DNA of 64,000 bases from NCBI RefSeq assembly GCF_053078305.1, contig NZ_CP166879.1, one strand, 5' to 3'. Shown piece after piece: positions 4,580-11,449 of this stretch; positions within the stretch are counted from its first letter, which is position 1; each line of letters begins with the position of its first letter. The position numbers were made by a program, and so were the translations under genes. The notes under the pieces are model-generated. The model did not search any database. It had not been told where the DNA came from and saw only the letters and a program-made list of their open reading frames with translations.

Positions 4580-5255
4580 TATTCGTGAAGCACACGCGCG
4601 CGGCGAACAGGCAATGTCCGTGGTTCTGCGCGCCAGCATTATTACCCCGGAAGCCCGTGAAGTGGCGGATCTACTGGGTTTTACCATCACCGAATGTGAT
4701 GAATCGTCCCCGGTAACGGCGTCCGTTCCCGCCAGCGTGCCAGCCGATAAAACCGAAAGTCAGCGCATCCGCGAAACCATCATTGCCCAGCTGCCGGAAG
4801 GCCAGTTTACCGAAAGCCTGGTCGCGCAGTTGATGGAAAAAGTGATGAAGGAAAAACAGTCGCTGGAGCAGGGTGCAATGCAGCCGAGCTTCAAATCGGT
4901 GACCGGCAAAGGCGGCATCAAAGTGATTGATGGCAGCAGCGTCAAGTTTGGTCGTTTCGACGGCGCAGAGCCGCATTGCGTGGGCTTAACTGACCTTGTG
5001 ACCGGAGACGACGGCAGCAGCATGGCCGCTGGTTTTATGCAGTGGGACAACGCATTCTTCCCGTGGACCCTGAACTACGACGAAATCGACATGGTGCTGG
5101 AAGGGGAGCTGCATGTTCGCCACGAAGGCGAAACCATGATCGCCAAAGCAGGCGACGTAATGTTTATCCCGAAAGGCTCCAGCATCGAATTTGGTACGAC
5201 ATCCAGCGTGAAATTCCTGTATGTCGCCTGGCCGGCTAACTGGCAATCCCTATGA
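4554..5255 (+). CDS. eutQ: EutQ, cupin-fold protein / acetate kinase
   Basis: 233 aa; GTG start preceded by AGGAGG; overlaps eutP 3' end by 26 nt. Confidence 0.9.
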   Translation: MKKLITANDIREAHARGEQAMSVVLRASIITPEAREVADLLGFTITECDESSPVTASVPASVPADKTESQRIRETIIAQLPEGQFTESLVAQLMEKVMKEKQSLEQGAMQPSFKSVTGKGGIKVIDGSSVKFGRFDGAEPHCVGLTDLVTGDDGSSMAAGFMQWDNAFFPWTLNYDEIDMVLEGELHVRHEGETMIAKAGDVMFIPKGSSIEFGTTSSVKFLYVAWPANWQSL

Positions 5256-6055
5256 AAGATTTCATCACCGAAGCATGGCTAAGAGCGAACCATACGCTCA
5301 GCGAAGGCGCAGAGATCCATCTCCCTGCGGACAGTCGCCTGACGCCCTCTGCCCGGGAGTTGCTGGAAAGCCGCCATCTGCGCATCAAGTTTATTGACGA
5401 GCAGGGCCGCCTGTTTGTTGACGATGAACAGCAGCAGCCGCAGCCCGTTCATGGGCTAACCAGTAGCGATGAACATCCGCAGGCGTGCTGCGAACTGTGC
5501 CGCCAGCCGGTGGCAAAAAAGCCGGATACGCTGACTCACCTGTCGGCGGAAAAAATGGTCGCCAAAAGCGATCCGCGTCTGGGTTTTCGCGCGGTTCTCG
5601 ACAGCACCATTGCGCTGGCAGTGTGGCTGCAAATTGAACTGGCGGAACCGTGGCAGCCGTGGCTGGCGGATATCCGTTCGCGTCTTGGCAACATTATGCG
5701 CGCCGATGCGCTGGGGGAACCGCTGGGCTGCCAGGCGATTGTCGGGCTTTCTGACGAAGATCTGCATCGGCTTTCTCATCAGCCGCTGCGCTATCTCGAC
5801 CACGATCATCTGGTGCCGGAAGCGCGCCACGGGCGCGATGCTGCGTTGCTCAATCTGCTACGCACCAAAGTGCGGGAAACCGAAACCGTAGCGGCGCAGG
5901 TGTTTATCACCCGCAGCTTTGAAGTATTACGCCCGGACATCTTGCAGGCGCTGAACCGGCTTTCCAGCACGGTCTACGTGATGATGATCCTGAGCGTAAC
6001 GAAGCCGCCGCTAACGGTGAAGCAGATCCAACAACGACTGGGGGAAACGCAATGA
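5252..6055 (+). CDS. eutT: EutT corrinoid (cobalamin) adenosyltransferase
   Basis: 267 aa; ATGA start/stop overlap with eutQ; cysteine motif CCELC. Confidence 0.93.
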
Positions 6056-7068
6056 TTATTGAACGTTGTCGTGAACTGGCGTTGCGAGCGCCCGCCAGAG
6101 TGGTTTTTCCGGATGCGTTAGATCAACGTGTGCTGAAAGCGGCGCAATATTTACATCAACAAGGTCTGGCAACGCCCATTATGGTCGCCAATCCGTTTGA
6201 ACTTCGTCAGTTTGCGCTCAGTCATGGCGTAGCGATGGACGGGCTACAGGTGATTGATCCGCATGGCAACCTCGCAATGCGGGAAGAATTTGCTCATCGC
6301 TGGCTGGCCCGCGCGGGCGAAAAAACGCCGCCGGATGCGCTGGAAAAACTTACCGATCCGCTGATGTTCGCCGCAGCAATGGTCAGCGCCGGTAAAGCGG
6401 ATGTCTGTATCGCGGGCAACCTCTCTTCCACGGCGAATGTGCTGCGTGCCGGATTACGCATTATCGGCTTGCAGCCAGGCTGTAAAACGCTCTCATCCAT
6501 TTTCCTGATGCTGCCACAGTACAGTGGCCCCGCGTTGGGCTTTGCCGATTGCAGCGTGGTACCACAGCCGACGGCGGCGCAGCTGGCGGATATCGCGCTT
6601 GCCAGCGCCGAAACCTGGCGCGCCATCACCGGAGAAGAGCCGCGCGTGGCGATGCTGTCGTTTTCCAGTAACGGTAGCGCCCGTCACCCCTGCGTTGCCA
6701 ATGTCCAGCAGGCGACAGAAATCGTCCGTGAGCGCGCACCAAAGCTGGTAGTCGATGGCGAGTTGCAGTTTGACGCCGCCTTCGTGCCGGAAGTGGCGGC
6801 GCAAAAAGCGCCTGCCAGCCCGCTACAGGGCAAGGCCAATGTGATGGTTTTTCCGTCGCTGGAAGCCGGAAATATTGGCTACAAAATCGCACAACGACTC
6901 GGCGGATATCGTGCCGTCGGGCCATTGATACAAGGACTTGCCGCGCCGATGCACGATCTCTCTCGTGGTTGTAGCGTGCAGGAAATTATCGAGCTGGCGC
7001 TGGTGGCAGCTGTGCCGCGTCAGACAGAAATGAACCGCGAAAGCAGTTTACAAACACTGGTTGAATGA
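6052..7068 (+). CDS. eutD: EutD phosphotransacetylase
   Basis: 338 aa PTA-family protein; ATGA overlap with eutT. Confidence 0.95.
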
Positions 7069-7106
7069 ACGGTCCCGTTCTGGACCCTGATAAAGAGGAA
7101 AGCACA

Positions 7107-7400
7107 ATGGAAGCATTAGGAATGATCGAAACCCGGGGCCTGGTTGCACTGATTGAGGCTTCTGACGCGATGGTGAAAGCTGCGCGCGTCAAGCTGGTTG
7201 GTGTTAAGCAGATTGGCGGCGGCCTGTGTACTGCCATGGTTCGTGGTGATGTTGCAGCCTGTAAAGCGGCGACCGATGCCGGTGCCGCAGCGGCACAGCG
7301 TATCGGCGAGCTGGTATCTGTACACGTTATCCCGCGTCCGCACGGCGACCTGGAAGAAGTGTTCCCGATCGGCCTGAAAGGCGATAGCAGCAACCTGTAA
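7107..7400 (+). CDS. eutM: microcompartment major shell protein EutM (BMC-H)
   Basis: In frame of ORF 7065..7400; start at ATG 7107 after GAGGAA; 97 aa [26 protein letters not shown]. Confidence 0.93.
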
Positions 7401-7418
7401 TCACCCTGTGTGACGTCG

Positions 7419-7440
7419 ATTCGGGCGTCACGCTCTCTCA
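7419..7440 (+). promoter_or_regulatory. hairpin GTGACG-N10-CGTCAC in eutM-eutN intergenic region (candidate mRNA processing/stability element)
   Basis: Inverted repeat read from sequence in the 106-bp eutM-eutN gap. Confidence 0.3.
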
Positions 7441-7506
7441 TTTTTCATTTTACCTTCCGCGGAGGGTAGGGGGAGCTTTTACCTGAAATACGCCACGGAG
7501 GCGGGT

Positions 7507-7794
7507 ATGAAACTGGCAGTCGTCACTGGACAAATTGTTTGTACCGTACGCCATCACGGACTGGCGCATGACAAATTGCTGATGGTGGAAATGATTGATC
7601 CACAAGGTAATCCTGACGGGCAATGTGCCGTCGCCATCGACAATATTGGCGCGGGAACCGGGGAGTGGGTGTTGCTGGTGAGTGGCAGTTCCGCCCGCCA
7701 GGCGCATAAAAGCGAAACGTCACCGGTCGATCTGTGCGTGATTGGCATCGTCGATGAGGTGGTGTCTGGCGGTCAGGTAATTTTCCACAAATAA
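7507..7794 (+). CDS. eutN: microcompartment vertex protein EutN (CcmL/PduN family)
   Basis: 95 aa MKLAVVTGQIVCTVRHHGLAHDKLLMVEM. Confidence 0.93.
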   Translation: MKLAVVTGQIVCTVRHHGLAHDKLLMVEMIDPQGNPDGQCAVAIDNIGAGTGEWVLLVSGSSARQAHKSETSPVDLCVIGIVDEVVSGGQVIFHK

Positions 7795-7805
7795 GGCAGA
7801 ACATC

Positions 7806-9209
7806 ATGAATCAACAGGATATTGAACAGGTGGTGAAAGCGGTACTGCTGAAAATGCAAAGCAGTGACACGCCGCCCGCCGCCGTTCATGAGATGGGCGT
7901 TTTCGCGTCCCTGGATGACGCTGTTGCGGCAGCCAAAATTGCCCAGCAAGGGTTAAAGAGCGTGGCAATGCGCCAGTTAGCCATTGCTGCCATTCGTGAA
8001 GCAGGCGAAAAACACGCCAGAGATTTAGCGGAACTTGCCGTCAGTGAAACCGGCATGGGGCGCGTTGAAGATAAATTTGCAAAAAACGTCGCTCAGGCGC
8101 GCGGCACACCAGGCGTTGAGTGCCTCTCTCCGCAAGTGCTGACTGGCGACAACGGCCTGACCCTAATTGAAAACGCACCCTGGGGCGTGGTGGCTTCGGT
8201 GACGCCTTCCACTAACCCGGCGGCAACCGTAATTAACAACGCCATCAGCCTGATTGCCGCGGGCAACAGCGTCATTTTTGCCCCGCATCCGGCGGCGAAA
8301 AAAGTCTCCCAGCGGGCGATCACGCTGCTCAACCAGGCGATTGTTGCCGCAGGCGGGCCGGAAAACTTACTGGTTACTGTGGCAAATCCGGATATCGAAA
8401 CCGCGCAACGCTTGTTCAAGTTTCCGGGTATCGGCCTGCTGGTGGTGACCGGCGGCGAAGCGGTAGTAGAAGCGGCGCGTAAACACACCAATAAACGTCT
8501 GATTGCCGCAGGCGCTGGCAACCCGCCGGTAGTGGTGGATGAAACCGCTGACCTCGCCCGTGCTGCTCAGTCCATCGTCAAAGGCGCGTCTTTCGATAAC
8601 AACATCATTTGTGCCGACGAAAAGGTACTGATTGTTGTTGATAGCGTAGCCGATGAACTGATGCGTCTGATGGAAGGCCAGCACGCGGTGAAACTGACCG
8701 CAGAACAGGCGCAGCAGCTGCAACCGGTGTTGCTGAAAAATATCGACGAGCGCGGAAAAGGCACCGTCAGCCGTGACTGGGTTGGTCGCGATGCGGCGAA
8801 AATCGCGGCGGCAATCGGCCTGAACGTGCCGCAAGAAACGCGTTTGCTGTTTGTGGAAACCACCGCAGAACATCCGTTTGCCGTGACTGAACTGATGATG
8901 CCGGTGTTGCCCGTCGTGCGCGTCGCCAACGTGGCGGATGCCATTGCGCTGGCGGTGAAACTGGAGGGCGGTTGCCACCACACGGCGGCAATGCACTCGC
9001 GCAACATCGAAAACATGAACCAGATGGCGAATGCTATTGATACCAGCATTTTCGTTAAGAACGGACCGTGCATTGCCGGGCTGGGGCTGGGCGGGGAAGG
9101 CTGGACCACCATGACCATCACCACGCCAACCGGTGAAGGGGTAACCAGCGCGCGTACGTTTGTCCGTCTGCGTCGCTGTGTATTAGTCGATGCGTTTCGC
9201 ATTGTTTAA
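7806..9209 (+). CDS. eutE: EutE CoA-acylating acetaldehyde dehydrogenase
   Basis: 467 aa aldehyde dehydrogenase family. Confidence 0.95.
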   Translation: MNQQDIEQVVKAVLLKMQSSDTPPAAVHEMGVFASLDDAVAAAKIAQQGLKSVAMRQLAIAAIREAGEKHARDLAELAVSETGMGRVEDKFAKNVAQARGTPGVECLSPQVLTGDNGLTLIENAPWGVVASVTPSTNPAATVINNAISLIAAGNSVIFAPHPAAKKVSQRAITLLNQAIVAAGGPENLLVTVANPDIETAQRLFKFPGIGLLVVTGGEAVVEAARKHTNKRLIAAGAGNPPVVVDETADLARAAQSIVKGASFDNNIICADEKVLIVVDSVADELMRLMEGQHAVKLTAEQAQQLQPVLLKNIDERGKGTVSRDWVGRDAAKIAAAIGLNVPQETRLLFVETTAEHPFAVTELMMPVLPVVRVANVADAIALAVKLEGGCHHTAAMHSRNIENMNQMANAIDTSIFVKNGPCIAGLGLGGEGWTTMTITTPTGEGVTSARTFVRLRRCVLVDAFRIV

Positions 9210-11233: not shown

Positions 11234-11235
11234 AT

Positions 11236-11417
<182 letters not shown>

Positions 11418-11449
11418 TAATAAATAACAACTAACAGGGAGTAAAGGCG

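Follow-up and report, generated by a model that had tools for sequence, protein, structure and literature searches.

The gap between eutM and eutN in the ethanolamine (eut) operon of Escherichia coli O157:H7 is a conserved, structured RNA segment lying exactly at the boundary between the genes for the major hexameric shell protein and the pentameric vertex protein. We analyzed this gap within a 64,000-nucleotide (nt) stretch of O157:H7 DNA (contig NZ_CP166879.1), referred to here as the window, in which positions 7350–7560 match O157:H7 chromosomes at 100% identity. The gap spans positions 7401–7506 on the plus strand (106 nt) and, as judged from aligned sequences, is under purifying selection. 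With moderate confidence, we read it as an RNA module that acts in cis within the polycistronic eut mRNA, so that eutM is expressed separately from eutN and the later genes. The module most likely helps express EutM and EutN at very different levels, although the gap alone cannot set the EutN level or the ∼100-fold ratio of EutM to EutN.

The gap is bounded upstream by eutM (7107–7400, plus strand; 97 amino acids, stop codon TAA at 7398–7400), a 100% match to the RefSeq-annotated O157:H7 eutM, and downstream by eutN (7507–7794, plus strand; 95 amino acids), identified from the RefSeq annotation of the flanking gene. These coordinates bear out the 106-nt spacing given in a preliminary description of the region, which also pointed to a GTGACG(7410–7415)-N10-CGTCAC(7426–7431) hairpin and a GC-rich segment. 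Both are present, but the hairpin is really a 10-bp stem and the GC-rich segment is a second, bulged stem-loop. Hairpin 1 (7408–7433, plus strand) starts 7 nt past the eutM stop codon, and reads GTGTGACGTC-GATTCG-GGCGTCACGC in the DNA and GUGUGACGUC-GAUUCG-GGCGUCACGC in the transcript. It has a 6-nt loop, six G-C pairs among its ten pairs, a predicted free energy of −16.2 kcal/mol, and a conserved core at 7410–7431. Hairpin 2 (7434–7476, plus strand), which is drawn from the predicted fold and from covariation, has an outer stem of UCUCUC (7434–7439) with GGGGGA (7469–7474) that can be extended by G7432-C7476 and C7433-G7475, an 11-nt bulge (7440–7450), and an inner stem of UACCUUC (7451–7457) with GAGGGUA (7462–7468) closed by a CGCG tetraloop. 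Its G-rich strand is 7469–7476, and the segment 7431–7476 folds at −18.2 kcal/mol. An A/U-rich linker, CUUUUACCUGAAAUA (7477–7490, plus strand), follows, which contains the motif ACCUGAA (7481–7487) and is predicted to be single-stranded, being unpaired in both the minimum free energy and centroid structures. The eutN translation-initiation region (7491–7506, plus strand) completes the gap, with a 4-bp hairpin of CGCC (7491–7494) and GGCG (7500–7503) around the loop ACGGA, and a strong but weakly structured Shine-Dalgarno sequence, GGAGG (7497–7501), that is 5 nt ahead of the ATG and partly inside this hairpin.

Compared with shuffled sequences, the whole-gap fold (−41.9 kcal/mol) has a z-score of −2.3 and the gap by itself −3.2, against −0.9 for the antisense strand. 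When 45-nt segments of the GC-rich operon are ranked by folding energy, neither hairpin 1 nor hairpin 2 is among the 15 most stable. These thermodynamics are unexceptional, and it is conservation that argues for more than a chance structure. The 64-kb window contains a single match to GTGACGYC-N3-24-GRCGTCAC, compared with 0.00 expected from shuffles, and the gap is found at ≥95% identity in 5406 of 5426 complete E. coli genomes, where it is single copy and unannotated, K-12 MG1655 included.

Conservation extends well beyond E. coli. One genome per species was scanned with EutN, which yielded 48 loci, 42 of them with a eutM homolog directly upstream; with the window, these make 43 junctions. 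All 43 keep a gap, 52–211 nt in length and with a median folding z-score of −2.4, including those of Pseudomonas and two Rhodocyclaceae. In 25 of them the gap carries the GTGACGYC...GRCGTCAC hairpin (Escherichia, the Citrobacter freundii group and relatives, Klebsiella spallanzanii, Buttiauxella, Entomohabitans, and Yokenella, the last with one compensated change). Another 14 carry instead repetitive extragenic palindromic (REP) sequences or the bacterial interspersed mosaic elements (BIMEs) built from them (Salmonella, C. koseri, the C. amalonaticus group, K. pneumoniae, the K. oxytoca group, Pseudocitrobacter, and Pluralibacter), and four carry other GC-rich hairpins. Hairpin 2 occurs in Escherichia, Citrobacter, and K. 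spallanzanii, while Buttiauxella and Entomohabitans have a different second hairpin. Since the hairpin-1 type is found in the most divergent genera, we infer that this type came first and gave way to REPs on several occasions. Three EutN-encoding contigs of 269–466 nt (loci L019, L033, and L044), labeled as the unrelated taxa Gemelliphila, Prolixibacteraceae, and Caballeronia, specify EutN 87–100% identical to that of E. coli and are most likely enterobacterial contamination of assemblies.

The arms of hairpin 1 were compared in 22 hairpin-1-type sequences from five genera, and its distance from the stop codon and its tail in 23. Within the eight pairs of the core arms, 14 of 16 positions are invariant and the remaining pair cycles through C-G, U-G, and U-A; by comparison, eutM and eutN of these 22 sequences keep only 4 of 79 fourfold-degenerate sites and 22 of 192 third codon positions unchanged. 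The hairpin starts 5–9 nt past the eutM stop codon in 23 of 23 sequences. Its loop ranges from 4 to 22 nt among species, which identifies the stem as the constrained part. By these comparisons, hairpin 1 is under strong purifying selection. Hairpin 2 has instead changed on both sides of a pair in four of seven inner and two of six outer positions (6 of 13 in total, compensatory), with 93% of cells paired in the alignment. The structure named here pairs 91.6% of cells compared with 45–64% when the partners are slid by 1–3 columns, and on four of five measures none of 500 column shuffles scores as well. RNAalifold, with no structure supplied, finds hairpin 1, the inner stem of hairpin 2, and the Shine-Dalgarno hairpin. 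The linker motif ACCTGAA is invariant or nearly so in Escherichia, Citrobacter, Klebsiella, Buttiauxella, and Entomohabitans, and the CGGAGG of the eutN Shine-Dalgarno region is invariant.

Several other pairings were considered. A direct repeat, TTTTACCT, at 7448–7455 and 7477–7484 flanks GGAGGGTAGGGGGAG, and either copy could be the partner of the G-rich strand of hairpin 2. In Citrobacter R56 and K. spallanzanii, covariation backs the upstream TTTTACCT copy alone, and a switch by alternative pairing of GGGUAGGGG with the downstream CUUUUACCU is possible in E. coli and is not retained in those two. Long-range pairing between the 5′ arm of hairpin 1 and CGUCAC in eutN codons 5–7 was also rejected, as this CGUCAC is equally conserved in REP-type species and is missing in Buttiauxella and Yokenella. 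Finally, the linker segment ACCTGAAAT resembles the eutM 3′ end, AACCTGTAAT, in E. coli and K. spallanzanii only, and was not accepted as a copy of it.

In shape, hairpin 1 is REP-like: a 26-nt palindrome that is transcribed, extragenic, and close to the eutM 3′ end. A REP or other dispersed repeat was nevertheless rejected. Searches with blastn (word size 11, E up to 10) of the 5426 E. coli genomes place the element at a median of one site per genome, and the hairpin 1 pattern is present once per locus, at the eutM-eutN gap. The REP tail TTATCCGGCCTAC, with one mismatch allowed, occurs at seven sites in the window (0.06 expected), including the eutG-eutH gap, and at none within 7401–7506. The E. 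coli gap likewise lacks the REP consensus (GCCGGATG...CTTATCCGGCCTAC type), which 14 other species carry in their orthologous gap. A search of 6800–8000 on both strands with Rfam cmscan (E up to 10) gave no matches. Targets of the ANTAR (EutV) type consist of two short stems with conserved hexaloops, with A at position 1 and G at position 4. The gap does not fit such a dual-hexaloop target, as the GAUUCG loop of hairpin 1 varies from 4 to 22 nt among species and the loop of hairpin 2 is a tetraloop. No plus-strand open reading frame (ORF) of ≥20 amino acids lies in the gap, and the ORFs on its minus strand overlap eutM and eutN in antisense. Stop-codon read-through was rejected as well, because loop indels are not multiples of three and would break any read-through frame. 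The RepRanger supplement contains no eut entries, and a full-text literature search returned no description of the gap element, with the Salmonella REP possibly noted in earlier work (Stojiljkovic, 1995; Kofoid, 1999). Intercistronic control of this type is known already but, as far as the full-text search shows, has not been described for the eut operon before.

The preliminary description had presented the operon as otherwise tightly packed. This holds for 12 of 16 junctions, which overlap or are separated by ≤20 nt, but the larger eutG-eutH gap (11234–11449, 216 nt), the largest in the operon, was overlooked. Other wider junctions are eutD-eutM (38 nt) and eutK-eutR (∼45 nt). Four REP units, arranged as two inverted pairs, make up the eutG-eutH gap, a BIME that folds at −100.6 kcal/mol (z = −4.9), and the K-12 feature table lists nothing there.

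We propose that the stem-loops of the eutM-eutN gap would act by blocking 3′-to-5′ exonucleases, and perhaps as a leaky terminator for a minority of transcripts. A cut in the linker or further downstream, or a stop at the stems, would leave a stable upstream fragment ending in eutM, so that eutM-ending RNAs become enriched relative to the downstream mRNA; the linker (7477–7490) is a candidate entry site for an RNase E-type endonuclease. At the level of translation, the long structured spacer would stop ribosomes that leave the heavily translated eutM from re-initiating on eutN, and in this way probably uncouples eutN from eutM ribosome traffic. EutN output would then be set independently, and low, by its own GC-rich and partly sequestered initiation region. 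The same role would fall to the REPs and BIMEs at this position in Salmonella, Klebsiella, and several species of Citrobacter.

Published expression data fit this module loosely. In the proteome of ethanolamine-grown E. coli W3110, EutM ranks first and EutN last in abundance among the Eut shell proteins, with relative levels of 100 for EutQ, 96 ± 14 for EutM, 39 for EutL, 37 for EutB, 27 for EutE, 24 for EutC, 10 for EutD, and 1 ± 1 for EutN (PMC11334477). RNA sequencing of strain LF82 gives, in reads per kilobase per million mapped reads (RPKM) for eutS/P/Q/T/D/M/N/E/J/G/H, 20/39/24/13/108/55/5/14/13/35/106 without bile salts and 76/166/192/83/357/177/62/149/147/168/514 with bile salts, where the operon is induced (PMC6379400). 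From these values, the largest downward step in the operon is from eutM to eutN in both conditions, 11-fold uninduced and 2.9-fold induced, and the eutM:eutE mRNA ratio is 3.9-fold uninduced and 1.2-fold induced. An array comparison of O157:H7 EDL933 in intestinal content with M9-glucose peaks at eutM (17.1-fold), followed by eutN (9.4), eutE (3.65), eutJ (2.76), and eutG (2.04) (PMC4041753). The predicted opening energy of the eutM initiation region, 2.2 kcal/mol, is the lowest of 13 eut genes tested, whereas that of eutN, 10.7 kcal/mol, is among the most closed. Across species, the eutN region is predicted to be harder to open than that of eutM in 39 of 42 loci (mean 8.95 vs. 4.98 kcal/mol).

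The preliminary description had suggested an mRNA element that sets shell-protein stoichiometry. The regulatory half of this suggestion has gained ground: a conserved structured RNA sits between the genes of the most abundant and the rarest shell protein in 43 of 43 junctions, hairpin 1 shows purifying selection and hairpin 2 covariation, REP palindromes occupy the same site elsewhere, and published E. coli data place a local mRNA maximum at eutM and the largest downward step of the operon directly after it. The stoichiometric half does not stand as worded, as an mRNA-level element alone cannot yield EutM and EutN at ∼100:1. EutE, EutB, EutC, and EutL are encoded past the gap and still reach 24–39% of the top level, so an mRNA step at the gap is insufficient by itself. 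Given these abundant downstream proteins, and induced eutE and eutJ mRNA at about the eutM level, most of the EutN deficit must be specific to eutN, by translation or by local mRNA decay.

A number of points weigh against the module as we propose it. The stability of hairpin 1 is only in the top ∼5% among 45-nt segments of the operon sense strand. A hairpin <16 nt from a stop codon lowers expression of the upstream gene, according to Liang et al. (2015) as cited in PMC12306157. In induced LF82, eutE and eutJ mRNA come close to the eutM level again, which allows a small polar step at most, and the dip in eutN mRNA may be a read-counting artefact of a short gene. The LF82 data are also coarse, with steps of similar size elsewhere (eutT to eutD up 4–8 fold, eutG to eutH up 3 fold), and the 3-fold rise across the eutG-eutH BIME is the opposite of what a REP stabilizer predicts. 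Term-seq of MG1655 with eut uninduced shows no sense-strand 3′ end in the gap (Adams et al., 2021, supplement). For other eut genes, opening energy and protein level agree poorly, and EutQ is the most abundant protein despite a GTG start and an opening energy of 8.05 kcal/mol. Finally, the arms of hairpin 1 are conserved in sequence, beyond pairing, and a generic exonuclease barrier does not explain why. Such a barrier needs pairing only, yet the arms are frozen while hairpin 2 covaries, which leaves room for a sequence-specific reader.

The same datasets contain observations on neighboring positions. The sole eut entry in the Term-seq supplement is a weak antisense 3′ end (946 reads; K-12 position 2572217, plus strand) that maps to ∼7330–7340 of the window on the minus strand, in the 3′ part of eutM, and therefore implies some antisense transcription through the gap in uninduced MG1655 (Adams et al., 2021). 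At the eutT-eutD boundary (∼6052; 5252–7068), eutD mRNA is 4–8 fold above eutT in LF82 (13 to 108 and 83 to 357 RPKM), pointing to an internal promoter or to a stable sub-transcript covering eutD and eutM, for which the gap hairpins could form the 3′ end. Within eutN, ATGACA-16 nt-AATGAT (7568–7595, plus strand) is the sole plus-strand hit of a promoter scan of the operon, as a consensus match only. This candidate promoter might contribute to eutE mRNA exceeding eutN mRNA in LF82 (14 vs. 5 and 149 vs. 62 RPKM).

REP palindromes are the textbook intercistronic mRNA stabilizer, and Newbury et al. reportedly described the one between malE and malF in 1987. The eut module shares with that stabilizer, and with the protective 3′ structures in differentially decaying E. 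coli operons (Dar and Sorek, 2018; PMC5927463), an intercistronic stem-loop directly 3′ of the more expressed and more translated gene and conservation among Enterobacteria, and the eutM-eutN site itself is occupied by REPs or BIMEs in Salmonella, Klebsiella, and some Citrobacter. Unlike malE-malF, the E. coli eut element is single copy and lacks the REP consensus, the candidate stabilized gene is sixth in the operon rather than first, and genes downstream of the gap are still well expressed; the eut case is likened from sequence and abundance data. A second parallel is the cip-cel operon of Clostridium cellulolyticum, where stem-loops of −14 to −24 kcal/mol in 92–116-bp intergenic regions set cellulosome subunit stoichiometry by the selective processing and stabilization of RNA (SRPS) (Xu et al., 2015; PMC4423207). 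Both operons encode a large protein assembly with very unequal subunit stoichiometry and carry stem-loops at the 3′ end of the abundant subunit's gene, with orthologous stem-loops conserved across species, and the eut values (106 nt, −16 and −18 kcal/mol) fall alongside those of cip-cel. Unlike cip-cel, E. coli uses RNase E rather than the Gram-positive RNase set, and the eut mRNA step is modest when induced. A third comparison is with REPs near stop codons, which stall terminating ribosomes according to Liang, Rudd, and Deutscher (2015) as presented in PMC12306157. Hairpin 1 is likewise close to the stop codon, at 5–9 nt, but stalling as presented there reduces the protein made from the upstream gene, whereas no shell protein is more abundant than EutM.

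The likeness of hairpin 1 to intrinsic terminators, as a GC-rich 8–10-bp stem-loop followed by a pyrimidine/U-rich tract, opens another reading that we consider unlikely. Hairpin 1 and this tract would form a partial intrinsic terminator, or the untranslated, G-poor CU tract would be a Rho loading site, such that a fraction of transcripts stops after eutM and all downstream genes are lowered. Hairpin 1 is the best terminator-like site in a 16-kb scan of the operon (10 pairs, tail UCUCUCAUUU), and 22 of 23 sequences have 10–12 pyrimidines in the 12 nt past the stem. In Buttiauxella, which alone resembles a proper terminator, the stem is followed by UUUCUUUA or CUUCUUUU with 5–6 U in the first eight positions, but this count falls to 4 in Escherichia and 3–4 in Citrobacter, where the tract is interrupted, and to 2 in Yokenella, where there is no U-tract. 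Terminator-like hits in the operon (20) are in no excess over shuffles (17.9), the CU tract is paired within hairpin 2 and absent from REP-type gaps, and ten essential downstream genes need read-through. The expression data divide in the same way: uninduced LF82 has a lasting 4–8 fold drop from eutD/eutM to eutN/E/J, and the O157:H7 array has a polarity gradient past eutM, while the recovery of induced eutE and eutJ mRNA to about the eutM level, the abundance of the downstream proteins, and the lack of a sense 3′ end in the gap in Term-seq of uninduced cells argue against attenuation. On its sequence, the gap does not hold a convincing intrinsic terminator in E. coli.

It is also conceivable, though in our view improbable, that the gap is a neutral spacer, a tolerated landing pad in which hairpins 1 and 2 are the decayed remnant of a palindrome and only the eutN Shine-Dalgarno region matters. 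The repeated swapping of gap content among hairpin-1, REP, and other types would be expected of such a spacer, and the thermodynamic stability of the gap is unexceptional. In addition, TCACCC (7401–7406), which follows the eutM stop codon directly, and ACGGAGGCGGGT, ahead of the eutN ATG, resemble the split halves of CACCCACGGAGGCGGGT, which is contiguous and directly before the eutN ATG in REP-type species (loci L006, L011, L017, and L026, compared with 7401–7406 and 7495–7506 of the window). The halves pair as ACCC/GGGU in the E. coli minimum free energy structure, an arrangement that looks as though an ancestral short hairpin covering the Shine-Dalgarno sequence had been interrupted by insertion of a hairpin module of ∼85 nt. 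Neutrality is difficult to reconcile, however, with 14 of 16 arm positions being invariant while 95% of fourfold-degenerate sites vary, or with the compensatory changes; none of the 43 junctions is shorter than 52 nt, and the element is single copy rather than a dispersed repeat.

The frozen arms of hairpin 1 raise a further possibility, to which we assign a low probability, that the hairpin, possibly with ACCUGAA, is recognized by a trans-acting RNA-binding protein, nuclease, or small RNA that controls eutN translation or the fate or localization of eut mRNA, with the structure as scaffold and the sequence as what is read. GUGACGYC/GRCGUCAC is invariant at 14 of 16 positions across genera in which ∼95% of fourfold-degenerate sites vary, around a loop of 4–22 nt, and hairpin 2 covaries freely in a narrower clade, unlike hairpin 1. 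ACCTGAA and CGGAGG are conserved at fixed positions ahead of the ATG, and GGA motifs lie both at the apex of hairpin 2 and in the Shine-Dalgarno hairpin loop. GGA in hairpin loops is the arrangement used by CsrA-type regulators. Against recognition of this kind, Rfam yields no matching family, a candidate factor is not known, and neither the rest of the window nor the vicinity of the eutS promoter is enriched for the motif. Replacement of the whole element by REPs in ≥14 species with the same eut gene set also argues against an indispensable partner. A dedicated factor that reads hairpin 1, and perhaps ACCUGAA, and tunes vertex-protein supply, or tethers or processes eut mRNA during microcompartment assembly, is quite unlikely; speculative candidates would presumably be the nucleic-acid-binding C-terminal domain of EutK or a CsrA-like regulator acting through the GGA motifs. 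The least probable reading by far is a DNA-level element, either an operator-like inverted repeat or an internal promoter for eutN and the downstream genes: the arms are a perfect inverted repeat of conserved sequence and TGTGA...TCAC superficially resembles CRP half-sites, but an arm spacing of 4–22 bp among species, harmless for a hairpin, is incompatible with a dimeric DNA-binding protein, a consensus scan finds no promoter-like site on either strand of the gap, and the half-site motif was not found enriched at the eut promoter.

How shell proteins are delivered at ∼100:1 from one transcript of a microcompartment operon is poorly understood, which limits the engineering of synthetic compartments. 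The mechanism class invoked here is well known, and the picture is refined rather than overturned. A conserved RNA module placed exactly where the hexamer and pentamer genes meet offers a concrete, testable handle on the question, and eutM-eutN constructs cloned with the gap may behave differently from those cloned without it. Its replacement by REPs in other genera suggests that REPs and the unique hairpin may be interchangeable, and the eutM-eutN junction offers a natural test case for the functional equivalence of REPs and unique hairpins.

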